A stretch of DNA of 64,000 nt from Raillietiella orientalis (taxonomy: Eukaryota). Below, piece by piece: positions 15,500-37,113 of the stretch. The position numbers and the translations under genes were made by a program. The number at the start of each line of letters is the position of its first letter. The stretch's first letter is position 1. The notes below the pieces were generated by a model that ran no database searches, was not told the DNA's origin, and saw nothing but the letters and a program-made list of their open reading frames with translations. Location of the stretch: assembly GCA_036172245.1 (NCBI GenBank), contig JAYWIR010000022.1, forward strand, positions 2,232,001-2,296,000, in the 5' to 3' direction.

Positions 15500-17000
15500 C
15501 TTTCTCCCCTTCAGAGTTTCCTGCGCCTCCAGGCGTGCGCGTCGTCGATGCGACAATCAACCCGACGGCGGCCGCTAATCCCTCCTTAGATCCTACCCGC
15601 AAGCGGTTACCATGGCTACTGGACCGAGCCGCGGGCGCACGCGGGACTCAGTTCTTCGATGCGCGCACCGCCACCAATGCTACTCTGCCCCTTTTTCGCT
15701 CCGAGCGCCGCCTCAGCCTCGAGAGTTTCCTTCTCCTCCTCCTCCCCAATTCGGTCGCACCCGACCGCGCCCTCCCGTTCGGGAGGCATCTCCAGGCGCG
15801 GTCGATCTCGCCGGGCGCTGCCGCCGCCCGCCCGCTACAGAGCGCGCGCTGATGCCGCCGCCGACAAAAAAGAAGCGCAGACAGCTGCCGATGACGCCGC
15901 CATGCGGCTGCGACGTCACCGCGAGCCCATGCAGCGCGCCATCTTGCAGGGCGGCACCCGCGCAAGGAGACTTACCCTCCTCCCCTCACTCCCGCCTTCC
16001 AGCTTCAGGACGTGAAAGAGGAGGGCGAATGCGGCTGCGCGTCGCCGGCGGGGATCCGCGCGCCCTTCCCTGTCCTGGAGGGCCTTCTGAGTCTCCTGTC
16101 GGGAGAGAAGGGAGGGGGGGGAAGCTCCAAGTAGGAACCGTGAGGATGCAGCGCTCCCCCTCCCCCCAGGGGAGAAAGAAACGGCTCACAAGCTTCGGAG
16201 CCCTTGTTGTCTCTAATTCCTCACGTTGCCTCGCAGTGGACGGCGGAAGGGTCAACCTGCGGCGTCTCTCCATACTCGAGAAGGAGCAGCTGGGTCGCAG
16301 AGCTTCCCTCAGACTCCCTGCCTCACGGCGTCGGGAAGGGAACATTCTCTGCGAGTCCACGCGCAGGACGGCAGCATCGCAAAAGCCGAATGGGTGCAGT
16401 CGGTCGGTCCCGCCACCGCCTCCCAGCCAGAACTTGCGTTAGATGAGCAGATGACTCACGCAGCAGGTGCGCGCCCAGAGGGTGGCGACCTCTTCGAGCA
16501 GAGAAACCATCCGCACGGTGCGCGCTGAAACAGACAGGCAACCGACAGCGCTTCCGGCTGTCCCCGCAGCACCTGCCACTCCCGCTCGAGTGACGCTCGC
16601 TCGCTCGCATCGCTCTCGTACGCCTTCCTCTCGGCAGGCGAAGCGCCCCGCGGCGGGCGAGCGTGTGTTCCTCCGCAAGAAGACACGATCGGGGCACGAT
16701 CCCATCACCCCCTCCATCCCAGCCCCGCACGCCCAAAGACCTTCCTCGCCGCCGACGTCTCCGAGGAGACGCAACGCCCTTCCCTTGCGATGCAACAGCG
16801 CAACAACGCCAAGCGCGCTGCCAACGGGGGGCCCGCGACGGCGTGCACCTTCCCGACAACGCCCTGCACCCGGGGCAGGGGGCACACCAGCATCGGAGAC
16901 GGCCACGTGGAGAGCGCGTCCCCTCCTTCTCCCGCACCACCGCCTTCCCCTTCGTCCCTGCTCCTACCCTTCCCCTTCAACGGAAGCCACTCCTTCCGCG
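15500..17000 (+). mobile_element. L2 LINE ORF2 remnant running into the left inverted-repeat arm
   Basis: EFP...ATINPTAAANPSLDP (~FP...A.V.PLLKKPSLDP); SRCLAVDGGRVNLRRLSILEKEQ (~CL..I..WM..N.LKLN..KTE); SQNLR; ETIRTVR; HDPITPSIPAPHAQRP (~DHITP.L..LHWLP, inside the arm). Confidence 0.55.
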
Positions 17001-18194
17001 CACCGCTGCCTGTGTATGCCGCCCACCCACAACGCCGCCACCACGCCTCTGCTCCGCGTTTCTCCTGCCGCCCACGCTTCCGCCTCCCTCACGACCCCAC
17101 ACGACACGACTTACGCCCGCCCTCTCCCGGAACGACCCTCGTCCCGCTGCCGACAACCGCACCGGCGGCGCACGCCTCCCGGCAAGCCGCGCAGCCGCCG
17201 ATGCCACCGCCTTCTTCTGCCCACTCTCCGTCGCCCAGCCCGCAGTCGCGCCTGGACGTCCCCCAAACCTCCTGCAGCCCACACAACACGCTTGCGCTCG
17301 ACACGCCCCGACCGAGACACCACCTGCCCCTCCCTCCCTCCATGGCCCTCCCACAACGCCCTGCAGACGCTTCAGGCACGTGCCGCAGCTCGCGGGCAAC
17401 CCGCGCCCCGACAACAGCCGCCGACCCCCCTCCCCCCCCCCCCCACCTCCACTGCACCCCTGCCTGCCGCAGAGACACTGCTGCCCCCTTACCCTTCGCT
17501 CCCGACGATCACCAGCGGCCATCGACGGACGCGTGCCAGGCCGCTGCTCGCACGCCACGCTCACACCTTCGCCCACCGCCGTGCCCACGAGACCCGCTCG
17601 GTTGCGTTTGCAGGTCTCGTGCACCAGCATGGCGCAGCGCGCCTTCGCCCGCCCTCACCCTTTCCCACTCGCCACCCGCACCAGCACTTCCACCCATCCC
17701 ACCGTGCCACCAAGACCACGACCGGCGACCGCACGCAGACACGCCTTTCAGGCCTGCAACGCCTCTCTCCCTCCGAAAAGGCCCGACCAAAGGCGCCAGC
17801 GGCGACTCGCTCGAGCGCGCCACACCGTGCGACGCGGACCGTGTCGTGTCCGTGGTTGCGACCGCAGCAACGCGCCACGACACGCCGCCCATGAACTCGC
17901 GCCCGCGAGCCAGCAAGAGGCCATGCCTCCGCTGGCAGCACCGCTGGCGGCCTCTGACCTCCTCCCCTCCTTCTTCCTTGCCGGCCCGCTCACGCTAGCG
18001 CCGGCGCCCAGCACAGCCTCCGGCGAGCGCAAGGCGGCTAGCCGGGCCGCTGAGCGCGGGGGGCGGCGGTGGGGGTGCTGCGGGGGGCAGGGAGATGCTC
18101 TCGGACGTAAAAGTGTGCTGCAGGGGTGGTCTCCCGAAACGGGCGTGAACCTCGTCGGCACGACCAGCGGCAAAGTTCGCGTCGCAGAGTGAAG
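16593..18194 (+). repeat. Left arm of ~1.6 kb inverted repeat
   Basis: Reverse complement of 35446-37037. Differences found by eye: about six substitutions (near 16609, 17270, 17394, 17758-59, 17918), C13 vs C12 run, and a 9-nt indel (tcgcgtcgc, 18177-18185). Confidence 0.97.
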
Positions 18195-19599
18195 CTCTAG
18201 GGAGTCCCAGGGGAATCGCCTCCTTGCCACCCCTCCCTCCTTTGGGGAACACTGAATGCGTGGAGGGCCGCTCGCGCTGGGAGCGAAGCCTCTCTCTCTC
18301 TGCAGCGCCGGGAAGAAAGGGCAGGGAGGTCGCGCTGCTGGGATTGGAAGGGCAGGAGAAGCATCGCCAGCATGGTTTCGCACTGGAAGATGTGGACAGC
18401 GCTCGTCAGTGAAGCCGCTGGTTCCCTGCGGTCAAGTCACCCAAACTGGAAGGAAATGCACCCACTCAATGGGTTCGTTTCCTTTGCTGCCTCGTTCCCG
18501 GCGGAAGTTGCGACCGTCACGCGCCCCAGCAGACTCCCTAAGGCGGGCAACCCTGTCGCTTGCCACGGGGAAATGAGGCAGGCGACATGTGAATACGCCT
18601 GGGACCCTAAAACACCTCACCCGTATCGAAGGTCTCGTGCCTCTGACTTTGCTTGAACCGTTTCTAGCGATTTCCCAGAGCAGTCGACGCCAACTTCCTG
18701 CAAGTAAGAAAGGACGGGGGAAAAAGCATGACAACGGAAAAAAAAACTCCGGGCCTCTTTCCTTCTGGAGTATTCGTGGTCTCGACTCAGGAGTCTGGAA
18801 AATGATCTCATGCCTCTCTCCCCCTCGCGCGCTCTTCCACCACCTGTGTGGCTGAGGTCTCGCCGTGTCATGGCCATCTCTTCCGTCAGCTTCCCCTTCG
18901 TCCCATCCGTCCACGTGACGGCGTGCAAACAGGTCCCAGCCTGCGGCTCCTCTGCATTCTCGTCACTCGTCGCACTCCCGCCCCAAGTGCATCCCACTTG
19001 TTGCATCCTAAAGAGCGCCAAGTGCATGCCGGCAGACTTTCGACGTGTCCGCCATGGAAAACTCGGCAGGGTGCCACGTGATTCCTCCGGGGCTCTGCCA
19101 CTCAGCGACGGCTGCTGCTACCGGAGGAGCGAAACACTCCGTTTCCATCGTTTCCTGGTTAGCAAAGGTGCTCGCGGTGCAGCGTGGGGCAGAGGGGATC
19201 GCACAGCGGGCAGGAGGGCGTCTTCTTCCCTTTCCGACGAAAGCATCGGAATCCGCGCCAAAAGGAAACCGAAAAACAAAAGGAAAGAGCCTTAAAAGGG
19301 GGGGGGGGAGCACTCCGAAACGGAGTGGGGAAAATGAAACCCGCGAGGGGGAGAACGACAAAGATGCCACCCCCGCTCACTCGGTTCGATTGTTGCCAGT
19401 TGTCATGGATATCTCTGATAAACAAATGAAACGAGGCAGCTCGAGCGAGCCAATGGGCTGCTCCGGGCTGGCGGCTCGCAGCGAGCCGTTGTCCCTTTTT
19501 TAAATGCAGCGATTGAGCATTCTCTGTTTGCCATTTGCCGGGGAAGGGGAGAAACGTTCCCTACCCTCTAAATTCCCTGCGGCTCAGAGACTCCAATCT

Positions 19600-20600
19600 C
19601 TTGGCTCCTTCCCAGGGCCTCCCTGCAAAGTGGACCGTTTCCGGAGGATGCACCAAGGATGCTGGTCGAATTTTTCCCGGCCTTCCGAGTGCCCCAGAGA
19701 ACGTGGAAAGCAGAGGCGCGGGTTTAGTCGCGGCGCTAAGATGATCCAGGCAGCCTCGCAGGCGAAGAGGAACCGAAGCACTTGTCACGTTAGCCGGAAT
19801 GTCCCGTTCCGTCATTAGTGGGCTGAATTTCTCCCGCGGGGCGTGAATCCGCGGATGAGTGCAAATCGCTAAATTAATCGAAGCGATGCAGCATTCTGGA
19901 AGGGGACCCCGCAACGAGGTCCTTGGTCGGGGTTCGATCGGTCAGGGAAGCTGGGAGCCGTTCTGGTTTCCTCCTGGCAAGGACGCTGAGGAGTGTCGTT
20001 CGCAACCTCATCGCGGAAAAGGTGGCTTTGGCCGGAACGGGAGGGGGCGCAGAGCGCTTGTCGAGATCGCTGCTGTCCCTCACCCCCGGTACCGACCGTG
20101 ATCGAACCGGGGAATTCGTCGGCTGAGCTTTTTCTCGTCTCAGGTCTCGCGAAATCTGGAGTGCCTGGGGATGCACGCTACGGGTCCAGAACGCGACTTC
20201 GAGCCGTCGCAGGAGACGGAGCGGTCGCATCAACGGAGGAGCTGGCAGCCAAGTGTCATCCGACCCTCGTGAATGTGTTGGATCGCGTCTCCCACTCCCG
20301 AGCACGGCATCTTGGGCCGACCACGGGTCCCTCAAGTGCCCGCCGAGCGTTCTTCCGTCCCCCCGGCAAACACGGCGTGCCGGTGGCCCCGAAGGCTGAC
20401 AGCAACCGACACGTAAGCCGGAAACCGGAATTTTTCATGCTGCACTTCACCATCTGTTTCAGCACTGCGATGGCTCGCACCGATGGCCGTTTGTCTCAGC
20501 TTGCAAGTCTTGACCTCGCTTCAGGTAGGGGAGGACGCCTCTTCCTCCTCTTTGTTCGTGGAATACTGCCGGAACGCTGGAAGAACCGCGGAGGTGGGGG
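19600..20600 (+). mobile_element. Helitron-like PIF1 helicase remnant
   Basis: VDRFRRM; KLIEAMQ...SIGQG (~L..NMR...IG.G); AELFLVSGLAKSGVPGD (~EFLNSL..SG.PPH); TTGPSSARRAFFRP (~LTG...G..VFIPR); LHFTICFSTAMARTDGRLSQLASLDL (~QFPVRLAFAMTINKSQGQSL..GLDL). Confidence 0.55.
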
Positions 20601-20654
20601 CCGTCGGGCCGCCACTGCTGGCCTGCCCGTTAGCCGCCCCTTCTTCGCCGCAAT

Positions 20655-20850
20655 GGTGTTCTCCACTTTCGAGATCCACGGCGACGTGGGGGGTTTCCTG
20701 CGAGATCTCGGGTCAGCACGAAACCTCTAGGCGGCTGGACTGACCGTCATCCATCCCCCTTCCCCGCAGAGGTGTCCTCCACTTTCGAGATCCACGGCAT
20801 TTGTCAACAGGCGAGGTGGAAGCTTTCTTGCAAGATCTCTAGGCGGCTAG
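20655..20850. repeat. Imperfect tandem duplication, ~116-bp period
   Basis: ggtgt(t/c)ctccactttcgagatccacggc at 20655 and 20771; each copy is followed by ttt(cctgcg/cttgca)agatctc and ctctaggcggct. Confidence 0.85.
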
Positions 20851-22649
20851 GTCGATGCGCACCAGCTCGCCGACGGCGCAAGAGCCTCGACCCCTCCCGG
20901 AGAACATGTTCTCTGGGGTGAACTCTTCGGCTTCCCGCCGGAAGAGCTGGAAATACTCCCTCGATCGCGAACAACTCGCACCTCCACTCTCAGGTGGCAG
21001 AGCAGTCGGAGCTGCTGCTGCTGCTGCTGCAATGCGCGCCGCCACCACTGGACGAGGAGGAGCGCCAGTGCCAAGTGAGGGGAGGAGGGAGGGGAAGAGA
21101 CATTCCCCTGCCTGTTCGTGAAGTGTGCTGCCCTGCGGGCATGTTTCTTTGCGTCCCTCACTTCCCCAGAGGACGACCCACGAAGCATCTTGAGAGACCT
21201 CTTCGCGCTGAGTGCCTAGCAGCCGCCGTCTCCGTTCTGTCCACCACGCGGGAGCTTTGAGATGCCAACTGGTCACGTGGGTTCCAACCGGCGGTGGCCT
21301 CAGTGGAGGATGCACGCGGCAGGACCCGCTCTCCTCCTCCTTGCGTGTAGGGTGAACCTCTCGATGTGGTCCACGAAAGGCGCGCGTCCTGTCTCTAGGG
21401 CAGCCTCTCCGCATCCGACACACTGCACGTTACCGTCAAAAACTAATCGTCTCTTCTCCCGCGGAGGGAGAAGGACGCAGAAAAAATTTAAAAAAAGAGA
21501 GGAGGGGGGTGGGAAGGCACGGAAGAGCCGCGAAGATAAGGGAATCTTCCCGGCGTCACTATCAGGAGAGGCCTGAAGATGAGGCTGCCAAAGCCCGAAG
21601 TATTTCGGGTTCCTGAGGACTCGCGTGCACGAGTGGATCTGCGAGAGCGCAGAGGGCGATTCGCAACGCCGCAGGTGTCGCCCGGCCGTCGCGCACCCCA
21701 ACGGATAAGAAAAGCCTCCCCGCCGCCGTCCCTTTCGGACCTCGGCATCGCGGGAGAAAGCAATCGGGCTGGGGAGGGACGAAGCGGGGAAGGCGCTCGC
21801 CCATGCATATCCGGCGAGCAGTGACTGAGGTCAGCCGGCGGCGCTGGCACGCAAAACGCACCGGAGCAGCAGCAGCAAGAGCCGCCGGGTTGTAGCTGAG
21901 CCGGAAGAGGCATCCTCCACAGCAGCCGCCGCCTCCTCTATGGGTCATAGCACGGGCTCCAGACGAGCCGAGGTAACGGGTTGCAGGAGGCGGCGGTCAG
22001 CGGAAGCCTGTAGGGGCCCTTCCGCCCCCTGTTGTCTTCACACGAGTATCAGCACATCTCGCGTCCGCCTTATCTCGAGCCGTTTCGTGATCTCCATGTG
22101 GGAGGCGAGGCGCGCGGATGCGCGGAGCGTGCCGAGGAACGCGCTCGCCCGCGCGCGCACGTCTGGCGGTACGCGAGGAGGGCGTCTGAGCTGCTGCGCT
22201 CGGTAGCACCCCACCCTCCCCCGCGCGCTCGAGTACCGCGCCTTCTGCAGTACTCGAGCACATCCCGAGGGCACGAATTCCGCCGTTCCTTGCTCTGCTT
22301 TCCCCGCTGCGATGGAACGGCGCTCGCCGGCGGATTCCGCGACGGGCAGCGGACCCACCAAGGAATCCGAGCACCGTGGTCTCCATCCCCCGTGCTGAGC
22401 CCGTGATGCCGGACTCCTCGGAGGAAGTGGCTTGGCCGCGCGATCGGCGGCGGACGCGGGAGCAAAAGCTCCTCTCCTGCGGCTTCCTCGATGCCCCCTG
22501 CTCCCTTCCTTCCCAGGAGGACGGGGACGGTTTGCGGCTTCTCGAGTCCGTGCCGCCGCTTCGGGAGTGAGGGCGATTGGGAGCGGTGCGGCACGGACGC
22601 AAGGAGGCATTCCTTTGCGCGCGCGCGCTCCTGGAAGTTTCCCCGCGAC

Positions 22650-24000
22650 TCGCGGGTGCGGCGAGAGGTTCGTTAGAACTTCCGAGGGGGAAGAGCGGAG
22701 TGGGGAAGTTATCGTGCGCGCCAGGGGATGCGAGCTGGAAGGCAAGGGAAGTGCCGATCGACCCTCCGTGAACTTTTGAGAATGCCGCGGGCGTAACCAC
22801 GTGCGTGCGCATGACGACCTGCGGTTGCAAACACAGCTGGAGTGGCACTGCAGATTACCCACCCTGCACTCCAAATAGCCCGTCTCAGGAAATGGGAGAT
22901 TGGCTGCAAGAAATCTTTGGAATGCCAAAAAGGGAAGCGCCGGCAGTTCCCTGATCGAGGTGCTTCCTGCAAAAGGTTCCGATCGCGGCGATAAAGGCTG
23001 CTTTCAAACGTCAGAAGCCCCAAATGAAATCGAAGGACTTTTTTTTTTTTTTTTGCTCGTCATGATGAACCGCAATTCAGTCATTAGTCATCATCCAGTC
23101 ACCTGCCAACGGGCCAAATCTCTTCCACTGCTGGTGAAGCTTTCAAAGCGCAGGCAAGGAGATTTCTCAGGAAGAAGCGCGAACGGCGCTCCCGTAACTC
23201 TACGCGCACGTCTTTCTCTCCCTTTTCGGGAAAACGGGAAGATGCTCTCCTCAGTACAGGTGGAGGAATCCTCCTCACCTCTCAGGTTTCTCAAAGGCAG
23301 ATTGCTAATCCGATCTTAAGAAGAATTCGGTTTCACCGTCTGTTTTGGTGCTCCCGATTCTTTTTCGCTTTCCCGAGCAGCAGGGCTCCATCCTCTCTGC
23401 CTTCCCGAACCGTACGCCAGCATTCGCGTCCGAGGTCCGCTCGCACTGCCCGTAGAGACGTGAAGCACCACCACGGCGGACCGCAGGGCGACGGGCCAAA
23501 ACGCGCCCCTCCAACTTCGACAACGGCGTGGAGCGGGCCGGAGCTGCCCTCAGATGCCGACGTCTTAATTTGGAAGCGACTAATCGATGAGCCGCACGCG
23601 TTCTGCATTGTTTGATGGGTGCACGTGATCCGGTGAGTGCATTGTTTGGCGATGGTCGCGTCCAAGCCGATTGCCGTGGCAACGGCGTCCCCGTGCGCCT
23701 CGGAAAGTGTCGTTGGCGATGAGCTTGAGAGGAGAAAAGCACTGCCCCTCCCCCTCGGAGTAGCCTCCGTCCACGAAACGGGACGGGACGCGCTGAATGG
23801 ATCATTGGAGGGTATTTTATGGAACCTGAGCGCGCGCGGGGGGGGAGGAGGAACTCCTCCATCATGATCGACAAATATTCCCTCTTCATCCGCTTGAATC
23901 TTGCGCTGCCGAAACGGTTTCTTAGCAGGCATCCATCGCCGGTATGCAGAATTTGCATCCTCTAGAGGGCGGGGGGGGGGAGGTTCTCCTGCCGGCACAG
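22650..24000 (-). mobile_element. L2/CR1-group LINE RT remnant
   Basis: HKIPSNDPFSASRPVS (~KKP.LDP....YRPIS); PRQSAWTRPSPNNALT (~QSGFR..HSTETAL); PLSKLEG; HLGLLTFESSL (~NLGV.FDS.L); SALPLPSSSHPLA (~HITP.L..LHWLP), collinear on the minus strand. Confidence 0.55.
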
Positions 24001-26881
24001 CAACGTCCGAGCTGAGAAGAAAAGAGAGTTCGTCGTTTCCCCGTCTCGGCTTTCTGATCCTAAATTGGCGTGACAAATGAGGGATTTTCGAACGTTCGCG
24101 AAAATGGCGAACGTTTGTGTCGGGAGACCAAGGCTGCTCCTCCAATGCAGTTGTCTCTGAATCGATCCTTCCGTCCCAAGAAGCTACCTGTCGCCTGGCA
24201 AAAGCCGAAAAGGCAGGAGGATGATTGGTCACCCCCCAGAGAACCGCCGGCGATCGCCTTCCACCGTCCTCCTGGAGGCTCTCCCTCTTCTTCGGCGGAA
24301 CGGGGAGATGCCACTGGCGTTACCCGGCCAGCAGGAGGAAGAGGGGGGAGGGAAAAAAAAAAAAAAACGAAAGTCGACAGCTCTCGTTCAGGCAGAGACG
24401 TCTGCGCGCGAAGAAGCTGGCTATTAATAACACTTTGGGAGGCTCGCCAGATGCTGGGCTCGCCAACGCCGGAGCGAGCGGAAGTAGAGGAGAGGCGGAA
24501 GGAGCAGAAGGGGGGAGGAGGGGAGAGGGCGCACTTTTCCGGACCCCTCCAGTGGAGGTACGTGAGATGCTCGCTAGAGGCCGCGGCGCTCTGCCTCAGC
24601 AGGTGCGCAGGAAGCGTGGAGCTCCTCCTTCCGGGACGAACCTCCTCCTGGTCAAATCTGGTCAGTAAAGGAAAACACCCTCTCCCTCTCCCTTCCCGCC
24701 GAGGGAGACGCGGGGTCCTCTTCTCTTTTCTTCGGGAAGCTGCGGGCTGTGGTTTTCCCGTCACGTGACGGACGGGTCACATCGCCGGCTTGATGGTGTA
24801 CCCTTCTCTACTGGAGGATACGGGAGGAAAAGATTGTTGGAGGGAAGCGGAGGAGTCGTGCATACCACTCGGGGTTTCGGAAACCTGGAAAGGCCTCCCT
24901 CGCTGGAACGAAAGAGAGGGGGACGCTCCGGTACGAAACGCAGCCGTACTCGGACGTCCAGGGGTTAACTCGCGGACGTCTGTTGGCAGCCTCCCAGTCT
25001 TTCATTGGAGGGCTGGTCAATGCTCTCTCCCCTTGTCGTTTTCTGGTGGTCCTTGGAAGGATCCTGACGTCACGCCCCCGGTTGCCACCCGAAGACGGAA
25101 GACGCCGCCGGGACGGCAGACGGAATAAATGGTTGCCTGAGCGAGGGGCGACGGCCACAGCCCCCAAGGGGAGAGGGAGGAAGAGGGACGATGCTCAGGG
25201 TACGCTCCTTTCACGTAATGCGGGGCTCGGGAGCAGCCGAAGCGTTGCTCCCCCTCTCCTCCTGCTCTTTTGGCCCCTGCCCTGCTCGTGAAGCTGCCGA
25301 TGGCGATAGCGTTACCCGCGCCCATCGCAGCAAACCAAAATGGGGGTCTGAGATCCCTCCCCTTCTTCAACCGCAGCCATCTTTCCCTTCCGCTGCTCCC
25401 TCTTCTCTCCGACGCCCCCTGTCAGGGCAGTGGGACGGTTTTTTCCGGACGTTTCTCTGCAGCAGCCGTTCCTGGACGTCTTGCCAGGAGTCGCGGTCAG
25501 GCATAGAGAAGGGGGAGCAGAGCCCCTGGCGCGGTGGTAGATCTTCCGTCGGGTCCCTGGCGGCAGAGGGGGCGGTCACGAGGCGCCGGAGATGCTCGCG
25601 GAGCCTCACGGACGGACGCTTCGCGGCCACGCGAGACGCTCTCCCTCTTCCTTGCCTTCTTCCCAGGCGGGAAGGGCCGGACTGCCCTTCTAAAGGAAGC
25701 AGTTCGGGACGGAGGGTTCCCGGGGGGTCTCCGGGTGAGTGAGGCCCGGAGGGAGGAGGAAAGGGGGCACCCTCTGCATTGCGGCGGTTCGAGACGGACT
25801 GCTTTCCTGCGCTCAGGGACTCCCCGCGAACCCGCGCCGGAAGCCGGAGCCCGTCCGGCAGAGACCAGCAGCCCCTGACCCGGGGCCCAAGCCTCCGTCG
25901 ATCGAGAAGCGGAGTCGCTCGCGCGGTCGCGACGCGTCCCCGAAAGGTTCCCCACTGGCACCAGCCTGCGCGATGCGCAGCGGTGCGCAGGAAGTCATGG
26001 AAAAGAGAAAAAAATGATAATAGGGGCGGTCCTACGGAAGCACACACGCGAAGCGGTGACCCTGCCGTGTGGCTCGCTAGCGCCATCTTCGAAGAGAGTG
26101 CGAAGAGAGTCCTCACCCCCCCGCCGCTTGCTTTCCACTGAACGCTCCGTATCCTTGGACGCGAGGGACGAACCGCGGGAACCCCAGCAAGCAAGCTGGA
26201 GCATCCTGGGCTCCTGGGAGATTGGGGTCTCCTGACCCACACCCTTCTGGGGGGTAGGAGGCGTTCTCCCTCGGCCGTGGGGATGGGGGTGCATCCTCAC
26301 TCCGGGACTTTGCAAGGGACGAAAGAAGTCCGTCATCACGGGAACCGCAAGTCCCCCCCCCCTCCCTGTCCGCCATTGATTTTTCATTTTCCGTTGGTCC
26401 GCCGCCGATGCGGTCTTCGCGCGCGCCTTCTGCCGGTGCCCCCCCCCACTTCTCCTCGGCGCCGCGGGCGACGTCGATTTCCTCGCGGGACGATCCGAAA
26501 AGCAGCCACTTCGTACTCACCCGGATGCAGGAAATTCGTGTTCCCGAAAATTCCCGGAAGACGCTCTGTTTCCATTCCATCCAATTTGCTCCGGAGGAGA
26601 TCGCCAGCGAGGAAGGGAAGGAGGAGGGAAGAAAAATTAAAAACCTACGGAAGAGAGACGAAAGAGAACGGGGGAGGGAGGGAACGGAGGACGGAGTGCG
26701 AGAGAGGCCGCTGTGAAGGGGGGGGGGGGAATTTTTTCTTTGCTTCCTTCCTGTGTCCCCGAGAGCATCCCTGCGCCTCCGAGCTGCGCGTTCCGTCTAC
26801 CACGGGCGGCGCTTCCCGAGGACCCAGCAGGAGGAGGGGAGGGAGGAAGGAGATCCATCGCAGTCGCTCGCCTCCGGTTCT

Positions 26882-26918
26882 TATAAACAGAGGGCGCTCC
26901 GCTCGGTTCTGCTCAGTC
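26882..26918 (+). promoter_or_regulatory. Core promoter: TATA box plus initiator
   Basis: TATAAA at 26882-26887 and TCAGTC at 26913-26918 (arthropod-type Inr consensus TCAGTY), about 30 nt apart and ~115 nt upstream of the ATG. Confidence 0.65.
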
Positions 26919-27028
26919 GGCGTTCGTACCGTCGTGCGTGCGAACGAGCGTGCGTGCGTGCGTGCCAGGTGGTTGTGCGCGGTGCGGGCCATGTGTGCGA
27001 CGGAAGGAACCTGGTCCCCGGAATTGAG

Positions 27029-27137
27029 ATGTCCTTTTTTGCCAACGTTGTAAGAGATGGAATAAATCAGGTTAACGATGCTGGGTATGATGAAACACAT
27101 TGTGACAGTGAAAACATGTTCAGAAAGTGGGTCACAG
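27029..27137 (+). CDS. yqjG-like: Glutathionyl-hydroquinone reductase (Xi-class GST, YqjG/ECM4 family), coding exon 1
   Basis: ATG at 27029 encodes MSFFANVVRDGINQVNDAGYDETHCDSENMFRKWVT; FRxWVT matches the family N-terminal FRNW(I/V)T motif. Donor CAG|gtaatg at 27138. 109 nt, phase 1, compatible with exon 2. Confidence 0.85.
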
Positions 27138-27856
27138 GTAATGCATTTTATTTTCCCCTTTTATTTTTGTTTTTTTTTTTTTTCTTTTGTTTTTGCGTCT
27201 CGAGAATCATGGGGTGGGTGCTGCCCTCAGCATGCGGAAATTTTTCGTCATTAATCACGTTATCTCCTCTCCCCTCCCTCCCCCCCTAAGTGGTGTGGAT
27301 GTGTATCACGCTTGTTTCCCCCTCCCCCCTCCTTCTTCTGGCTAATGTGACTTTTCGAACGCGTGCAACACGAATCTCTTGCGAAGCAGTCATTGTCAGC
27401 AAAAAATTTGGGATGATCTGTGAGGGAAACCGTAGCTCATCGTCTTTGTAATCACGGAATGATTTCCATGCTTCAGTTATTGATTTCGAGCTCTCGCCTG
27501 CCCGTGCCTCCCTGCTTGTCATGTGCACGGTCCCCCTCCTCCCACCCGTCGGGGTGGAGTGGCGCCGCGGGGTTCCGTGGGCGGGAGGGACCCCACCAAC
27601 GTGGCACCGCCGCCCGCCCGCTTTCATTTCCCTCGTGTGGCGAATCCTCCCAAAAGCTTGGAGGTGCTTCCAGGCGACGCCCCCCTTCCGGCGCACGCGG
27701 GCCGCGGGTGGCTGAAAGGTTCCCATCTCCACCATGGGGTACGCGCGCGTCTTCAGGCAGGAGAGGCGTCTTCCTCCGGTGCGTTGCCGCCCTGGGAAGG
27801 GGTCGTGTTCTGCCCACCGGCCGCATCGGATGCTCATGGAATCCTACGTCACTCTG

Positions 27857-27863
27857 GTTGTTG

Positions 27864-27895
<32 letters not shown>

Positions 27896-27904
27896 GGTGG
27901 TGGT
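27857..27904. repeat. Compound microsatellite (GTT)8(GGT)8
   Basis: Read directly from the sequence. Confidence 0.95.
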
Positions 27905-29399
27905 TCCTTCCAGCCGCTGGCTCTTCCTCCGCTTTGCTCGAGAACGGTGCGACCTTGGCAAGAGAAGAAACGCGTGATGCGCACGAAGCCCTTTTCTTCT
28001 TCTTTCTTGGTGCGGTTCGTCCACCGTGACGCCCCAGCGTGGCTTCTCTTGTTTCTGGTGATGGAAAGAATCCTCTTAGCGCTAAAGACTCTGACGGATT
28101 CTGGAAGGTGTCTTTCCTTATGGGTGGTCACCACCACCACCTAGTTTTTATCGGAGGACGTTTCAGAGCTTTTTGTTGCTGCTGCTGCCGCTGCTTGGGT
28201 TTCGGTTTCGGAATTTTTCCTTGGTGGAGAAGCCCCCCCTTCACCCCGTGGTTTTCGGTTTCACCCCCTCACCGTACCTTCCGAAAAGATTTTGCCCAAA
28301 TCTCGGACTATTGCATTGGGAGCTCTGCAAGGAGCTGCTGCAAAGCCAAAGGGAAAGAGAGAAAGGAAAAAAGGCCACACGTATTTGGCGACGTGGAAAC
28401 AGCGTATTTGGATTTAATAAAAAAAAAAACAGGGAAAAAAGGAAAAAAAGAAGCTCCGGCTTGCATTCATTGTCCTGGAAGGGAAAGAAATTCAATTTTT
28501 CTCTTCTCTCGAAGATGTTCGCGAATCGCAGTTGGCTTTCATTAAGTGAGAGCAGGCGTAAGTCCTGCACGTGGTACAGTCCTTTTTTTTCTTATAGCGA
28601 AATTCGTATTTAATCAGAAGGGAGAAAAGGGAATCGACGTGTCTTTTAGCGTGTTGCGCGGAAGCAGAGCTCGAATGCAGGTGGAGGAAGAGCCACGCAA
28701 TCTTCCTGCTGCTTCTTCTGCTCGATGCGCCCATGGCCATTTGAACCCCCCCAGTCCAGACTTCAGCACTTACTACACTTAATCTTCCATTTTTTGTCTC
28801 CCCCCCCCCACCCCGCCGTGCGTGTGTGTGTTTTTGAGGAATTTCTGTGGCTGTCGAGCAGGCCTGCAAAGGGAACAAACAAGCACTGCGCGTGTAATCA
28901 AATTTCTCCAGTCCAATGCAAATAGTTCTTTTCGAGATGGAGGCCATCTACCCCTCCTCCAGAAAAGAGAACGTGCCCTCCTCCTCCTCCTCCTCATTCT
29001 CCCTCGAACCGTATCAATAAATTAAAACAGAACAATTTGAATTAACGCTTGCATAAAGCGTCGGAGCTTGCTGCAGTTCCTTTCCTCACAAAAGGGGGGA
29101 AAGGAAAGGGGGGAAAAAAAGGAAAAAGATCCAGTTTCCTAGGGAACAGATTTTTTTTTTTTTTTTCCATTCCGTTCGTGGTGCTGTGCAGCTGAATAGA
29201 GATGATGCATTGTTTTTGTTAAAGGCGGCGTTCACGCCGAGGTTTCAGGTTCGCGTCTTAAAGGTCACACGGTCTCTCCGTAGTAGCGAGTTCTCGAGAG
29301 TGGGTTCTCAGAGCGAAAGCGCGTTGCCTTGGCTTCATCCCGGACCTCCGTGCTGTCTGTTCCGGACCACACAGCATCAGGCATCTGCGATTCCCATCT

Positions 29400-29750
29400 G
29401 AAGGTCCGTCAGCTCGTAGCTCCGCTGTGCAGCAGCAGCAGTAGCCGCGCGCGCGTATCTGCAGAGGAGCGAGCGCGATGGATGGATGGTGCGCCGGAGG
29501 CTGCTGCTGCTGCTGCGTTTGGACCAGCTTCAGAGAGCGGCTCTGCACCCCCGTGCGCGCGAAGCCACTGTGCTGCTCGCAAAGCGGACGGTTTGCTCAT
29601 ACCATGGCGCCAGATAAGAGATTCCACCGAACCGTTCCAGAGGGACCCAGCAGCTTCTTCGGAAGCACGCAACAAGTGCGAACCAAAGGTCAGGCTTGGA
29701 TCCTGACGGTCGGAATTCAGGGATGACGTTTTTGCCATGGCAGGCTGCAG
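29400..29750 (-). mobile_element. Ingi/Vingi-like LINE fragment
   Basis: QDPSLTFGSHL...LIWRHG..SALRAAQWLRAHGGAEPL (~LD..LTF..HL...WGA...LRT.ALAL.YS.AEY). Confidence 0.4.
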
Positions 29751-30949
29751 AAACTCTTAGGGAAATCGTCTTGTTGGATGGCGAATCCTCAAGGCGATGG
29801 ATGTATCGAAACCCCTTCTGGTTCGGAATTGTTCTGTGGGGTACTCGGTAATCTTCCTATCTATCCCTGAATCATGAGGAGCGATCGCTCGTGGCCGGTT
29901 TGCCACCCCCTTTTTTGGGGGGTTTCTTGTAGTAAGGGTGTTTGTCGGTGTACCTCGACGCATATGGAGAACGCATCTGAACCTTCCGCAAGCAGCTTTT
30001 CGCGAGGGCTTGCAATCAACTAGTTGTGTGTTTTGTGTATTCTCCAATGCGTGACGACCTCCAGCAGAGATCGTTCTAACCCTTCCTTCACGATATTTTT
30101 CGGTGAGTTACCTCTCGCCGTGTTAGACTAATGCTGGTGAGTAACCCCTAAATGTGGAAGCACCGAGAGAGCAAAACTCACCTCACCATTTAATACGCCG
30201 TTACGAACCATTGCATACAAGAAATACATTCCCTCCTACGACGTTGGTAATACAATTACATACGAGAGCACCTCACCATTTGGTGTTCGACGTGTGGAAT
30301 GTTAATCACGCGCGTTGTCGGTATTTGCGGAAAACGATGACAATCTCGAAGGGCATTTCAGAAGAAATCGTTGAAGGGAGCACCGGGCTGCTGCTGCTGC
30401 TTTTTTTGTATACTCATTGCTTTTAGACGTATACTGTGGTGGTGGGAGATGTACTGATTCCGGGCTGTTGCGGTTTTCGAACGAAGGGAAAAAAAGTTCT
30501 TCAAGGGTGGGCAATGGGCAATAAATATTCTTCTTTATTTTTTTCGGGGGAGGGGGGAGTAACGTCACTCACCCCCTGGTTCTGGAGATTTTTTTCCGTA
30601 TTCACGATAAGTGGGAACCCCTTTTCGTAATTGTAACGTGATTTTCACCGCATTGCCATTCCCTTAGCAAGGAAAAGAAGCAGAATAATTTCGTACCACG
30701 GAGAACTTTGACGGCGTCTCGGATTACATACTGAAGGTCTCGTGCGCAGCGCAAGCCAAGCTTTCCTGAAGTTGGGGAAGGGGAGGGAGGGAGGTGTATC
30801 CTGGAAGCCGTATGCTCGCCGAAGGACGTAAGGGTTTACGCAAGTAGTAGGGTGAGTCGGCAAGAGTAGGCAATGGAAAGGTCATCGCCAGCCTGGAGCT
30901 GCACCCCGCGTTTTCCTCCAGGGAAGGCAGCAGCTTTTCCAGCAGGAAA

Positions 30950-31400
30950 ATGCTACTCAAAATCGGCAGTTTCTTTCGGAAAATGAACCTTCGGAAACGT
31001 AGTTGTTGGTGTGTATGTGTACACTTCATCTCCGATGCTTGCGTACTTGTTACAAAAGCGGCGCGAATTATGGTTGTTGGGCGCGCAGAAGGACAGCGCG
31101 CGGACAGCGTTGTTTGCCTGAGGGTTCCTTCTCGAGAGGGAAGGAAAATGCGGAAAGCATCCCCAGCATCTGCCAAGAAGGTTCGAGATTCTCCTAGTTG
31201 CCACGAAAAAGATGGGTGATGATGCATGTAAACGTGCACCGTCCAACTACTGGTGCAGTTGAAGGTGGTGTAGCAGCTGTGGCTGCTAAATACTGACGGT
31301 GATAAATGTACTCGGATCGATCCCATTCACTCACTTTAGAACCGAAGGATAGGAGGGAAATTACGGGAAATCTTGTGGACAGCAGCGCCATCATCTGCCC
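30950..31400 (-). mobile_element. PIF/Harbinger transposase remnant
   Basis: VSEWDRSEY (~V.GWEGSAHD); TFLADAGDAFRIFLP (~YL.DAGY...FL.P); PNNHNSRRFCNKYAS (~P.N..E.FN.RH), across frameshifts. Confidence 0.45.
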
Positions 31401-31720
31401 GGTGCGCTGGGGTTTGCTCCTTTCGAAAGAGTGGTCTTCTTCCCGGACCAACGCATCCTGTTTTTTTCCTTCTTGGTGTTGCTGTTGGCATCGGATGAAC
31501 ACCGGATGCAAGCATTTTTTTTTCGTCTGTGTGCGTGGCGTGTCGACTTATGGGCGTAGTGTCGGTGAAGGACCCACAGTCGCTCATCGCATTGGCAAAA
31601 TGACCGAAATTATGGGAAACCGAGCTGCCAGCATGTCGGTGTCTTGCAATTCGTCGATTGTCTTGTTGATCGCTCCATGTCTGAGTTCCCCCCCCCCCTT
31701 TTTTTTTTCCCGCGTTTCTT

Positions 31721-31722
<2 letters not shown>

Positions 31723-31770
<48 letters not shown>
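31723..31770. repeat. (GT)24 microsatellite
   Basis: Read directly from the sequence. Confidence 0.97.
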
Positions 31771-31772
<2 letters not shown>

Positions 31773-32039
31773 CTCCATGTGATTGCCCTTTTGGTGTGGC
31801 TCTTATCTTAGAACGCTGGCAGAGCATCTGGCGTTCCCTTCATTTCGTGACACAAGGGAGCAAACAGAGGACAGCGGACGGACCCAACAACTGTGGTCCC
31901 TTGAAATTGCGGTAGCCGGAAGCCGTTCTGCCTAATTGGCGTTGTAAGCGGAAATTCACTTTTCACCTGCTGCACCTTCTCCCCGGAGTGGGTGGGGGAA
32001 TGGCCTCCTCCTGTGACCCGTTGTGCATTTTCTCTCCTC

Positions 32040-32700
32040 ACCAATTTCATGAAACGCGGATGATCCTCAACGGTGCCGAAGAGGGAAAACGCAGCGGTGA
32101 TTCAACAGCAAGTTCCTGATCTTGTCTTTGCCCGTCCTCGTTTGGCCATGCTTCGGAGAGGGAATGGTAGATTTCTCCTAGATAGGACGTCTATTGCGGA
32201 AGTAGGAACAACAGCTGAAGGGTCCAGGGTGCTTTCCATTTGCTCCTTTCTTTGTTATATAGAGCTCACTTGAGCTCACAATTACGTAAGCGTGACGTTG
32301 AAAAAAAAAAAGAACGTCCATTGAGGATACTCCAGGATTCTGGCTTCCTCCATGGTGCCAGGAAGGTTGGCTGTTCTCAGGGTGGCACAGGAGCGAAACT
32401 TGTGGTAAGCTTCAGAATGCTGCTCATCTTATCTTGAATACTCCTTCTCAGAAAATGATTAGATGTAATGGACTTCTGTCTCAGTATACGTTTAGGGTTC
32501 AGCAGCTCCGTTATAAACTTTTTTTTTCCTCACTCGTAATTCAGCTCGGTCAGTTTGTCTTGGATATTAGTTTTATAGTACAAGTTGCCGTTCCTGGAGA
32601 CGTTTATTTTGGAGGGAGACATTTGTTGCACGCAGGAGAGTGTAGAACATTTTTCATCCAACTGCATCATGAAATCAGGGAATGGCGTTCTCCGCCCAGT
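32040..32700 (-). mobile_element. hAT (Charlie/Buster-like) transposase remnant
   Basis: FMMQLDEKCS (~FALQLDEST); YFRNRRP (~NFIK.RP); NLLLNHRCV...AFHEI (~LL.HTEVRWLSRG...F.EL). Confidence 0.4.
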
Positions 32701-32989
32701 GATGAGAAAGCTTAGCAACGTTGCGGAACGGAGCACATTTCTCTCATGCAATTATTACTAACGAAGTATGAGGAAAGCTTTTCATACTCCATTCCTAATT
32801 TTCGTTACCAATTGAATTTATTTTTTTGTTTCATGATGAAGGCGTCAGTAATCGAAAAAACGTCCCCCCATCTACTTTCCTTTGGGTGTCAAATAGCTCC
32901 GTCGCACGTATCTCATGGAATTTCGTCATTTCATTTAAATAATTTCCACAGTTTCACCGTCGCACAATTATATGGATTTCGTTTCGTGT

Positions 32990-33500
32990 TCCCTGGGCTT
33001 CCGCAACGAAACACTTCCAAGTGCATCGTCTAATTCCCGAAACGGGACCAGCAGTCCAAGTCGATTTCCCGTGCGCAGCCGTGCCTTCTACTTCCACCAC
33101 CCGCGTTCTTCTTGCAGATCCTGGCGAGTACCATCTCGTACTACCATCGCGCGTGTACCTCTCTCCCACCACCTCTCGTAAACGTTTGCTTTCTTCGCCC
33201 GTTGCAGACCATGGCCGAGGATGCTGGCAGTCTGCCGCGCAACCCGAAATTCCTGCCTTGCATTCGTTAACGTGCCTGCCGACTCGATATTCGTGCAGCA
33301 CACGCTCCAGGCGAGATCCTCCCACAGTCGTGTGCTGCAAGTGAAGAACGAGCAGTGGGGAAACTTCCTGCCAAGAACACCCCAGAGGTGGCATAGAGGC
33401 TGCCCCCGCATTGGGGTTCGGGGTGTTTCATCAGTAAAGTTTGGCGATGGATATTGGCAAACAGCTTTCGACAAGATCAAGGCTAATCATGGGATTACAT
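32990..33500 (-). mobile_element. RTE-clade LINE 3' remnant
   Basis: LWGVLGRKF (~L.VFERK); EFRVARQTASILGH (~IK..RLRWAGH); TW...IRRCTWKCFVAEAQ (~W...DR..WR..V.EA). Confidence 0.45.
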
Positions 33501-34320
33501 CTTTGAGGAGGCATTAGAGCGACGAGGGCGCTTCGCATCCTTTCCGCTCTTGTGGTCCATACTGAAACGACGGGGAAGCGAACTTCCATGATTTGCTGGA
33601 CCAATCAGAGCTTAGTCAGCCTCTTGCAAGATAACTCAGCTCTAAGATCGTCGCGGAACAACAGCAACAACTGCACATTCATGTTTTATGTGGATTCTAA
33701 TTCGCAGAATTCGCATTCCAACTCAATCAGAGGCATCTGGTAAACAAAGGCAAGATGTGCGTGAGCGGAGGCAGAAAGAAGTTTTTGTTCTTCGTTCATT
33801 TCAAGGACCTTACGAGAGCGTCTCAGGAGAAACTCTCCTCTTTTACTTCCTGCGAAGGGGGGGGGGGGGAGGGGGTTCGTGTTGTGTGCAGCACCGTGTT
33901 GTCTGTCCGTCGCCAGCCTTCCGTCATCGGAAACCTGCGGAGCATCTCCGCGTAACCCAAGACCACCGGGAACGAAACACTTCATCGACCTGTGCGCCTG
34001 CGCGTGAGAACCGTGTGCATCCCGTGCGGCCCCACGATCCTTGTGTGTAGGTGTTTCTGTGTATTCGCAAATCGAAGGGGCACGTTCGCACCTTTCTACC
34101 GAGTGCCGTCCTCGCATCGGCGCAGACTCGCCCTTCCGTAAAGCTGCCCTTTGCCATTATCGGTGGAAACGCTTCTGCCCGACTGAAGCAGGGCAGGGGG
34201 CGTTCTTGAGCTGGGCGTACACTACCGAGCCTTGTACACTCCGACCGCCCACACACCGGACCAAGATCGATCGCTTGTACGTAAGGGTCCGCCGATGCTA
34301 TTTTTAGCTGCCCATTGTTA

Positions 34321-34347
34321 CCGCCGCCGCCGCCGCCGCCGCCGCCG
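34321..34347. repeat. (CCG)9 microsatellite
   Basis: Read directly from the sequence. Confidence 0.95.
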
Positions 34348-35049
34348 CCTTTGTCCCGTTCCTCTTCTTCTCCCCGAAGGCATCCTTCCCTCGCAACCAT
34401 CCAACCGTCTTCCTGGCTCGCCGTCCCTTCTCCGCGTCAGCCCAGCTTCTCTCTTCTCACGCTTCCTTCCCGTTTTGCGACTCAGAAATCGCGGGCAGCT
34501 TCATCCGGGAAGCCCACTGGGGGGTCACTCTTGGGGCGGCAGTGATCCAGCGTTCCGTGTGCCATGCTTGGACGGCGAATCTCGGCAACACTTTGCCAGG
34601 AGTGTTCCCAGCGAAAGAGTTGTGCGCCCGGCTTGCCGCTTTGCTCATTGAGAAGTCGATCCCCGTAACGTCGAGATCTGATGCGGATGGGAACACACGA
34701 ATCCGCGTGATCTCAACTTCAGAGCTGCCATTAATGAACACTCCGTTTGGAAAAGAGTGCACCGGAGTGCACGAGTTGCAGTCCGCCGTTGGCTATCATT
34801 TTAACCCGTCGGATTTCCCGATTCCTCCAGTTGAACGGAAGCTGCGTTCACGAGAACATACAGTTCTTCGGAGGGAGAATCGCCCCTGACGTTTCGATTG
34901 TGAGAAACCATCAAGCTTGCAGGCAGCAGGCAAATGGAAGCATCATGAGGATCTCCTCTTGCAGCCGTTCGGGACCAAGAGGATTGATTCGTTTTCCAGT
35001 AACCCGGTGCTTTAATTGCCTCGTTCGATTTAAATGCATGGCGCAGCTC

Positions 35050-35370
35050 ACGCGACAGGCAAAAGAAAAATATCCTTTCCACCACGAAACTTCATGCAGC
35101 GCGTTTTCCGCAAGCCATTTGTTCGCCGCTTTTGTTTTTCTTTGGCAAACACGGCGTTCCTCAGTTCGGTGCCGCAGGAAGAAAAACTTTCTCCGCCACA
35201 CTTCAGACTCGCGGGACTCTCTGCGAAACACATAACTTTTCCGTTGGATTCCTGCGACTTCACCAAAGGAAAGACACACCAAAAGCCAACCTCACCATTC
35301 CTCCGTCTACCAATCAATGCGCACGGCAAATTGTACGCTTTCTCGTGTACGCACAATATGAAGAGCAAGT
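35050..35370 (+). mobile_element. Helitron-like PIF1 helicase C-terminal remnant
   Basis: HITFPL (~RQFPL) followed by PINAHGKLYAFSCT (~PVFSHGQLYVALSRV); upstream AGL(S/C)..NT resembles GLCNGT. Confidence 0.45.
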
Positions 35371-35445
35371 CCACTTTCCCCATCAGCCCTACAGAATCCC
35401 CACGGATCCTCGGCTCCGACAAAAACGAAAGATTCCCCGTCCGAT

Positions 35446-37037
35446 CTTCACTCTACTTTGCCGCTGGTCGTGCCGACGAGGTTCACGCCCGTTTCGGGAG
35501 ACCACCCCTGCAGCACACTTTTACGTCCGAGAGCATCTCCCTGCCCCCCGCAGCACCCCCACCGCCGCCCCCCGCGCTCAGCGGCCCGGCTAGCCGCCTT
35601 GCGCTCGCCGGAGGCTGTGCTGGGCGCCGGCGCTAGCGTGAGCGGGCCGGCAAGGAAGAAGGAGGGGAGGAGGTCAGAGGCCGCCAGCGGTGCTGCCAGC
35701 GGAGGCATGGCCGCTTGCTGGCTCGCGGGCGCGAGTTCATGGGCGGCGTGTCGTGGCGCGTTGCTGCGGTCGCAACCACGGACACGACACGGTCCGCGTC
35801 GCACGGTGTGGCGCGCTCGAGCGAGTCGCCGCTGGCGCCTTTGGTCGGGCCTTTTCGGAGGGAGAGAGGCGCGGCAGGCCTGAAAGGCGTGTCTGCGTGC
35901 GGTCGCCGGTCGTGGTCTTGGTGGCACGGTGGGATGGGTGGAAGTGCTGGTGCGGGTGGCGAGTGGGAAAGGGTGAGGGCGGGCGAAGGCGCGCTGCGCC
36001 ATGCTGGTGCACGAGACCTGCAAACGCAACCGAGCGGGTCTCGTGGGCACGGCGGTGGGCGAAGGTGTGAGCGTGGCGTGCGAGCAGCGGCCTGGCACGC
36101 GTCCGTCGATGGCCGCTGGTGATCGTCGGGAGCGAAGGGTAAGGGGGCAGCAGTGTCTCTGCGGCAGGCAGGGGTGCAGTGGAGGTGGGGGGGGGGGGAG
36201 GGGGGTCGGCGGCTGTTGTCGGGGCGCGGGTTGCCTGCGAGCTGCGGCACGTGCCTGAAGCGTCTGCAGGGCGTTGTGGGAGGGCCATGGAGGGAGGGAG
36301 GGGCAGGTGGTGTCTCGGTCGGGGCGTGTCGAGCGCAAGCGTGTTGTGTGGGCTGCAGGCGGTTTGGGGGACGTCCAGGCGCGACTGCGGGCTGGGCGAC
36401 GGAGAGTGGGCAGAAGAAGGCGGTGGCATCGGCGGCTGCGCGGCTTGCCGGGAGGCGTGCGCCGCCGGTGCGGTTGTCGGCAGCGGGACGAGGGTCGTTC
36501 CGGGAGAGGGCGGGCGTAAGTCGTGTCGTGTGGGGTCGTGAGGGAGGCGGAAGCGTGGGCGGCAGGAGAAACGCGGAGCAGAGGCGTGGTGGCGGCGTTG
36601 TGGGTGGGCGGCATACACAGGCAGCGGTGCGCGGAAGGAGTGGCTTCCGTTGAAGGGGAAGGGTAGGAGCAGGGACGAAGGGGAAGGCGGTGGTGCGGGA
36701 GAAGGAGGGGACGCGCTCTCCACGTGGCCGTCTCCGATGCTGGTGTGCCCCCTGCCCCGGGTGCAGGGCGTTGTCGGGAAGGTGCACGCCGTCGCGGGCC
36801 CCCCGTTGGCAGCGCGCTTGGCGTTGTTGCGCTGTTGCATCGCAAGGGAAGGGCGTTGCGTCTCCTCGGAGACGTCGGCGGCGAGGAAGGTCTTTGGGCG
36901 TGCGGGGCTGGGATGGAGGGGGTGATGGGATCGTGCCCCGATCGTGTCTTCTTGCGGAGGAACACACGCTCGCCCGCCGCGGGGCGCTTCGCCTGCCGAG
37001 AGGAAGGCGTACGAGAGCGAAGCGAGCGAGCGAGCGT
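35446..37037 (-). repeat. Right arm of ~1.6 kb inverted repeat (in intron 1)
   Basis: Near-identical reverse complement of 16593-18194; the ORF track gives mirrored peptides (e.g. 17509..17916- vs 35715..36122+). Ends 76 nt before exon 2. Confidence 0.97.
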
Positions 37038-37113
37038 GGGCGCACCACGTGAGCGGGTGCGGCAAGTGCAGTGTGAACTCGAAACACTGATGTTTGTTTG
37101 TTGTTTTTTTCAG

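Follow-up and report, generated by a model that had tools for sequence, protein, structure and literature searches.

Gene structure and predicted promoter

The stretch analysed here (the window) comprises 64,000 nucleotides of the Raillietiella orientalis genome, corresponding to positions 2,232,001–2,296,000 of the forward strand of contig JAYWIR010000022.1 (GenBank assembly GCA_036172245.1). Unless given as contig positions, coordinates count from its first letter. It contains the gene of a predicted glutathionyl-hydroquinone reductase and a large inverted repeat, one arm of which lies within intron 1 of this gene and the other upstream of it, with exon 1 and, probably, the promoter enclosed between the two. 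The repeat is a duplicated part of the gene itself, and its near-identical intronic arms adjoin a strongly decayed copy of exon 2.

Five exons on the forward strand, all with GT/AG borders, join into a single frame of 330 codons. Coding exon 1 (27029–27137) provides 36 codons, of which only the last residues (FR.WVT) match the family. Exon 2 (37114–37292), which is also the source of the pseudo-exon described below, encodes the catalytic CPWS motif at residue 58, and its best matches in the PDB were to Xi-class glutathione transferase (GST) and YqjG, with an expect value (E) of 4e-17. The named matches of exon 3 (43972–44243) were YqjG-like glutathionyl-hydroquinone reductases, including those of a crinoid, scallops, sea urchins and a tardigrade, and came from marine invertebrates, fungi and others at about 50–65%. 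Exon 4 (55270–55480) matched the Pfam domain GST_C_2 (E 1.7e-12), and the coding part of exon 5 up to the stop codon (56378–56599) was assigned from the frame. Identity to six homologues among the matches listed was 44–54%. The encoded protein is predicted to be a glutathionyl-hydroquinone reductase (Xi-class GST, YqjG-like) with GST N- and C-terminal domains, and its putative role in detoxification is assigned by family membership. When the R. orientalis assembly itself was searched (210 Mb in 491 contigs; match counts are lower bounds), exons 2 and 4 returned one credible match each, and the gene appears to be single-copy.

A core promoter was predicted at 26882–26918 on the forward strand, with TATAAA at 26882 and an initiator (Inr)-like TCAGTC at 26913, whose A lies 33 bases from the first T of the TATA box. 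This spaced pattern occurs eight times, both strands included, in the 864-kb comparison region around the window (contig positions 1832001–2696000). The guanine-plus-cytosine (GC) content of the sequence between the arms has a change-point at about 27000. Upstream of the gene GC is 61%; it is down to 51% within intron 1 and to 47% within introns 2 and 3, where T is also in excess. Together with the motif, this composition suggests that the promoter probably lies inside the spacer.

Several further features were recorded around the gene start. An upstream ATG in good context opens a 20-codon frame (26991–27053, forward strand) that runs across the main start at 27029 in a different reading frame. 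This short frame could reduce translation; alternatively, the true start site could be located further downstream. About 300 bases upstream of the TATA box, a short ATG-led frame on the reverse strand (26600–26515) ends at a donor-like GTGAGT and may be a divergent first exon; it does not mirror exon 1. The exons of the gene have a GC content of 35–49%, and the DNA outside the gene 61–68%. CpG is depleted in exon 2 (observed/expected 0.54) and not in the introns.

The inverted repeat

Self-comparison of the window by BLAST returned one large inverted pair, 16569–18176 against 37069–35455, with 98.8% identity over 1616 columns. Within it, a homogenised core was delimited at 16593–18176 and 37037–35455, in which 7 of 1584 columns differ (six substitutions and one 1-base indel in a C run), giving 99.6% identity across 1.58 kb; a stretch of 660 bases (16610–17269) is fully identical. 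The left core (16593–18176) is extragenic, with the reverse strand matching the gene-sense right arm, and the right core (35455–37037, forward strand) lies in intron 1. Past the inner end of the core, a 9-base indel followed by 9 matching bases extends the arms to 18194 and 35446, after which a short diverged tail completes a ragged inner end (18177–18215, reverse strand); its local score was reached by 5 of 500 shuffles, so that homology beyond 18194 is weak. The spacer between the arms (18195–35445) is unique, measures 17.25 kb and would be inverted by a crossover.

The initial annotation of this DNA had described the arms as reverse complements with about six substitutions and two indels, enclosing about 17.2 kb that holds the promoter and exon 1, with exons 2–5 outside. 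The same count of differences was obtained here, the indels being those of 1 and 9 bases, the spacer length agrees, and the exon coordinates place exon 1 within the spacer and exons 2–5 beyond it, as does the sequence-based prediction for the promoter. Its account of the extent of the repeat was incomplete, since homology continues past the outer edge for about 260 bases and across exon 2.

Only two copies of the arm were found. Searches of the assembly, with counts that are lower bounds, returned two matches for the complete arm, two for its outer end and two for an inner piece, and a search of the 864 kb by nhmmer gave no third copy, the next match having an E of 0.62. The spacer is not itself palindromic, with no mirror homology above controls. 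A giant palindrome centred on the promoter was rejected, as 61 windows taken at 300-base steps gave no mirror homology beyond the arm and exon 2, and the alignment score around the centre of the repeat was below the shuffle mean. An alignment of the 1500-base inner flanks (49% identity, reached by 2 of 200 shuffles) was not confirmed by the stepwise scan and was treated as noise. The centre of symmetry of the repeat, 26815, lies 67 bases upstream of the TATA box, so that a flip would only reverse the promoter, nearly in place; this proximity is probably due to chance.

A decayed copy of exon 2 outside the left arm

Beyond the outer edge of the core, 16349–16592 aligns with 37272–37046 at 139 of 248 columns with a score of 87, which was reached by none of 200 shuffles (maximum 51 with 500-base flanks and 60 with 1500-base flanks). 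On the gene side, this alignment covers the 76 bases at the end of intron 1 that lie outside the core (37038–37113, forward strand), which contain a branch-like site at −27, a T tract and the acceptor AG, followed by exon 2. On the left, the diverged copy of the intron end (16525–16592, reverse strand) is 62–69% identical to 37038–37113 and has kept the acceptor AG, with a weaker pyrimidine tract (9 T against 15 in the last 20 bases). The branch-like site is lost there, which is weak evidence, as two of three other real acceptors also have none. The inverted copy of exon 2 that follows (16331–16524, reverse strand) is a pseudo-exon, frameshifted and with its donor lost, and has a GC content of 64% against 41% in exon 2.

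Identity between exon 2 and its copy was 101 of 175 aligned columns, corresponding to a Jukes–Cantor distance of 0.62 and a divergence of about 42%, with all four parameter sets in agreement. The differences lean towards G/C: 50 of the 104 A/T positions of exon 2 have changed to G/C in the copy, and the opposite difference is seen at 12 of 71 G/C positions, again with all four sets. At codon positions 1 and 2 of conserved residues, where exon 2 is likely to be ancestral, changes from A/T to G/C numbered 19 of 34 and the reverse 7 of 31 (p 0.026); conserved residues were those kept in at least 60% of 58 full-length homologues, defined as the proteins of length 290–400 among the 120 listed.

Copies of exons 1, 3, 4 and 5 were found neither on the left nor in the spacer by DNA alignment (with margins of 60 bases, exon borders accurate to within 12 bases and 20 shuffles per exon) or tblastn, and a second gene body on the left, as in a switch between two products, was rejected on this ground. 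The duplicated unit is therefore about 1.85 kb of the gene, consisting of exon 2 and the 1.66 kb of intron 1 that precede it, placed in reverse 8.7 kb upstream of the promoter. It is old at the exon and young-looking in the intron. The pseudo-exon also carries a donor-like GTGAGT some 65 bases past its acceptor (16523–16453, reverse strand), from which splicing could continue in frame in a flipped allele; a search for a downstream exon that would accept the splice found none.

Composition of the arms

Both arms have a GC content of 71%, compared with 68, 59, 55 and 43% in their 2-kb flanks, the margin over the outer left flank being only 3 points. The steps at the two ends of the right arm are sharp, from 53 to 74% and from 70 to 46%. 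Across the 864 kb, in which GC forms a strong mosaic (2-kb windows from 37% at the 5th percentile to 65% at the 95th), 5 of 4281 other 1.58-kb windows, all of one locus, reach 71%, and none is as G-skewed as the arm (G skew 0.278). On the gene-sense strand, the arm comprises 45.5% G, 25.7% C, 15.5% T and 13.3% A, and the rest of intron 1 25.6% G, 25.8% C, 26.9% T and 21.6% A. Because the share of C is the same in both, the whole GC excess of the arm is G. Six G-quadruplex-type motifs were counted on the gene-sense strand of the 1.58-kb arm and one on the other, against a background of 0.40–0.46 per kb per strand. One possibility is that strand-asymmetric mutations of transcribed DNA were fixed by GC-biased conversion.

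The flank to the left of the duplication (14300–16340) has a GC content of 67.5% and an AT skew of +0.089, which 26 of 159 GC-rich 2-kb windows reach, and bears no clear imprint of long-term transcription. As to the identity of the arm, a coding gene, an RNA family and a ribosomal DNA spacer were each considered and rejected, with no support from Pfam, Rfam or Atlas.

Predicted outcome of an inversion

By geometry, an intrachromatid crossover within the arms would invert the 17.25 kb without loss of DNA and leave the promoter and exon 1 facing away from exons 2–5, as the initial annotation had deduced. In a flipped allele assembled in silico, exon 1 spliced to the decayed copy of exon 2 stops after 64 codons and lacks the CPWS motif. 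Such an allele would be null, because this product stops early and exons 2–5 lose their promoter. The arrangement is that of an inversion-permissive pair, with near-identical inverted copies within and outside the gene on the same chromosome; the external copy is gene-derived and non-functional, being frameshifted, without a donor and unaccompanied by detectable copies of exon 1 or exons 3–5. The arms look as if they were still recombining.

The assembly contains the locus in the ON form only, in agreement with the orientation initially assigned. No second haplotype was found in it, the promoter region returning one match. No recombinase had been seen, and here too no recombinase family scored above the curated Pfam cut-off in 129 open reading frames (ORFs), a subset of the frames of the window comprising 113 low-GC frames out of 549 (at least 40 residues long, in 1–27300 and beyond 57000) and 16 long ones; an enzyme could also act in trans. 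In place of the short recombination sites of programmed inversion, the arms consist of 1.58 kb of duplicated host intron. The proposal of a reversible null allele or a phase-variation-like somatic toggle thus stands in part: the flipped allele is null in silico, whereas the switch is possible in geometry and unsupported in fact.

Comparable repeat pairs in the surrounding region

The 864 kb contain 11 pairs with at least 300 columns at 94% identity or more, six of which are two-copy, and five of these six are at least 500 bases long. Two of the five are inverted, including the gene-associated one, and three are direct. All five have near-identical middles and ragged edges, and in four the GC content of the core is above that of all four flanks, by 13, 8, 3 and 1 points.

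The second inverted two-copy pair (about 2000690–2001220 and 2023140–2023650, contig positions here and below) has indel-rich edges and a separation of 21.9 kb; about 470 of its bases are nearly identical, with a GC content of 70% and flanks of 46–57%. One of the direct two-copy pairs (about 2313550–2314820 and 2341630–2342900; 1.28 kb, 96%, 26.8 kb apart) has a core of 55% GC, with one copy lying within DNA of 30–39% GC. The two others, at about 2119000 and 2209030 (89 kb apart) and at 2615080 and 2622160 (6 kb apart), are about 1.1 kb long and 99.2–99.3% identical. A shorter inverted pair (2474188–2475554; 366 bases, 99.5%, 636-base spacer) is related to a dispersed repeat family and may represent the ends of a small transposon.

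Origin and maintenance of the repeat

A single duplication left alone is ruled out, because a core of 99.6% identity adjoins an exon copy of 58% identity. We consider it likely that the locus is an old inverted partial gene duplication under concerted evolution, in which GC-biased non-allelic conversion acts on the core and a crossover is a rare null mutation, not a regulated state. A single event would have produced the copy, through either template switching or an inversion at staggered breaks that was subsequently reversed. Thereafter the two arms, separated by 17 kb, would have undergone non-allelic gene conversion that kept the intronic core alike and favoured G/C. Selection would have removed conversions that carried sequence of the copy into exon 2 or the acceptor region before it, and these parts may have drifted until they were too different to convert. 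An occasional crossover would invert the promoter and exon 1, giving a null allele as a rare mutation.

The position of the outer edge is consistent with this proposal of concerted evolution. The core ends 76 bases before the exon-2 acceptor, sparing the branch-like site, the T tract and exon 2, as would be expected if selection removed conversions that reach the acceptor region or the exon; selection that locally restricts conversion has been described for opsins (PMC3924837). The arms are more than 99% identical although the duplication is old, and they are GC-richer than their flanks. High arm identity with raised GC is likewise reported for the primate X palindromes (PMC8981503) and for the human Y palindrome P6 (PMC3723533).

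Several points weigh against this explanation. We infer conversion in the arms from one haploid assembly, and polishing can raise the identity of arms. The drift of the pseudo-exon towards G/C may partly reflect the general regime of the GC-rich intergenic DNA in which it lies (left flank 61–68% GC): dispersed repeats drift weakly in the same direction (733 against 622 mismatches, with 14 of 24 untied pairs in agreement) in the 27 of 222 pairs, themselves non-independent, whose contexts differ by at least 10 GC points. Third codon positions show no significant bias (14 of 39 against 3 of 19, p 0.14). One of the five two-copy pairs has a core GC content 6 points below its richest flank. Finally, GC-biased conversion alone does not explain why the gain in the arm is all in G on the sense strand.

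Among the other explanations, a recurrent germline inversion polymorphism ranks highest and is nevertheless unlikely. Crossovers would then be frequent and both orientations would segregate, with the null allele re-created and reverted, as in the yeast flip/flop inversion. Arms of 1.58 kb at 99.6% identity and 17 kb apart would be a good substrate, comparable to reported human inversion-prone repeats (PMC3961182; F8 intron 1, PMC7507428), and the AT skew of the left flank has the sign expected from occasional leftward transcription. That skew is ordinary, however, and the GC content of the flank is 67.5% against 47% in introns 2 and 3; no second orientation is present in the assembly, and a flip would create a null allele of a gene that is single-copy and has its frame intact, whereas the yeast inversion is described as breaking no gene (PMC9731477). 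Somewhat less probable is one recent overwrite of long-diverged copies, whereby a single template switch or long conversion tract, or a flip and flip-back, put GC-rich left sequence into the intron. The sharp GC steps of the right arm and the GC-rich surroundings of the left one fit such an event, and conversion tracts of more than 2 kb are reported in P6 (PMC3723533). Nonetheless, sequences of only about 60% identity, which recombine inefficiently, would have had to recombine with both ends exactly in register. Moreover, the core exceeds even the left flanks in GC content and far exceeds intergenic DNA in G skew, the skew being on the gene-sense strand. An artefact of assembly or polishing, by which the near-identity of a real duplicate was inflated or one arm was written from the reads of the other, is improbable: the 660 fully identical bases and the single assembly are compatible with it, but an exon copy that is 58% identical, shifted to G/C and in register cannot stem from mis-assembly, the arms retain seven differences, and a collapse of the consensus presupposes high identity.

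The same low probability is given to a transcription-driven process, in which the G-rich non-template strand of the arm would form R-loops or G-quadruplexes and the resulting breaks would be repaired from the upstream copy, raising GC to 71%, with enough crossovers among the repairs for the promoter and exon 1 to flip measurably often in the germ line or soma. If this were true, the gene would be a self-renewing, reversible knock-out that needs no recombinase. A homology-driven reversible ON/OFF toggle, somatic or bet-hedging and perhaps with priming by R-loops or G-quadruplexes of the transcribed, G-rich arm, is very improbable. The geometry would yield clean ON and null states, and the arm, with its G-rich non-template strand and six G-quadruplex-type motifs in 1.58 kb, is the most G-skewed stretch sampled. 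Yet no recombinase was found in the scanned ORFs, the OFF state has no alternative product, similar pairs are common nearby (the five two-copy pairs of at least 500 bases), and the literature matches listed for programmed inversion or invertible promoters were all bacterial by title; in yeast, the flip/flop segment reportedly kept its orientation through about 53,800 mitoses and 950 meioses (PMC9731477). A last explanation, that a transposable element inserted twice or that the arms are the terminal repeats of a large element, is largely refuted. Dispersed repeat families are common in the region and the C-rich strand of the arm has long open frames, but its stop triplets number 7 where composition predicts 13.4 ± 3.5, the frames lack a Pfam match and score below threshold in Atlas (0.81 at best), neither the genome search, with its lower-bound counts, nor nhmmer in the 864 kb gave a third copy, and the homology runs into a host exon.

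Relation to known systems

In the F8 intron-1 inversion of haemophilia A, the two copies are reportedly inverted, and the flipped part is said to be the promoter with exon 1. Copy int1h-1, in intron 1, is described as recombining with int1h-2 about 126 kb away, which accounts for 1–5% of severe cases (PMC7507428). As in this reported case, the R. orientalis gene has one copy in intron 1 and a near-identical one outside, and recombination between them would break the gene; unlike F8, where the inversion is seen in patients, the copies here are 17 kb apart, the outside one extends into a decayed exon 2, and the assembly has the locus in the ON form only. SORD/SORD2P and IDS/IDS2 are given as inversions between a gene and an inverted unprocessed pseudogene, in which the flip joins exons to stop-bearing pseudogene exons with loss of function, and 411 inversion-permissive gene/pseudogene pairs are listed for human in the same source (PMC12632684). 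The likeness to these published pairs lies in the partial or broken copy in opposite orientation, and the difference in that the pseudogene here is a single-exon fragment whose exon copy is old (58% identical), with only the intron near-identical.

In the palindromes described as maintained by conversion, conversion is far commoner than inversion, with 3 inversions against 56 conversions in P6, at about 1.4–1.7e-5 per generation (PMC3723533). The present arms resemble P6 and the primate X palindromes in being more than 99% identical and in having a GC content above that of the flanks (PMC3723533, PMC8981503). Those palindromes have far longer arms, and their GC bias is reported from variants and outgroups, whereas the arms here measure 1.6 kb, their GC step of about 20 points over the intron is much larger, and the bias is read from one assembly. 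Similar in scale is the flip/flop inversion of Saccharomyces chromosome XIV, an old, continually homogenised repeat with 4-kb arms and a 24-kb spacer that is reported to have re-inverted in evolution and to keep a stable orientation on laboratory timescales (PMC9731477). According to that account, both orientations occur in many strains and the arms carry functional genes, whereas the arms studied here are non-coding and a flip would be null. Recurrent human inversions between inverted repeats are likewise described as common (PMC3961182). With bacterial invertible promoters the locus shares a promoter between inverted repeats that is ON in one orientation. The recombinases of bacterial programmed inversions are said to be usually encoded nearby, and repeats of 44 bases to count as already long (PMC9881135), in contrast to the 1.6-kb arms here and the lack of a recombinase among the 129 scanned ORFs.

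Significance

What is new here is another instance of a known architecture, that of an inversion-permissive pair of a gene and a partial pseudogene with a homogenised, GC-rich core. In this F8/SORD-type layout, a flip would be a null mutation; in the closest studied cases, recombination between the arms is reported to end mostly in conversion, as in P6. The locus gives a clear single-locus picture of concerted evolution, with an old copy, a near-identical core, an edge placed just before the splice signals and a strong drift towards G/C in the freed exon, and it adds to the signs that ectopic GC-biased conversion is strong in the R. orientalis genome. Loss of a detoxification-type enzyme through new null alleles could also occur here repeatedly. 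This would matter more if both orientations occurred in animals or tissues, because recombinase-free reversible promoter flipping in animals is known mainly as disease mutation.

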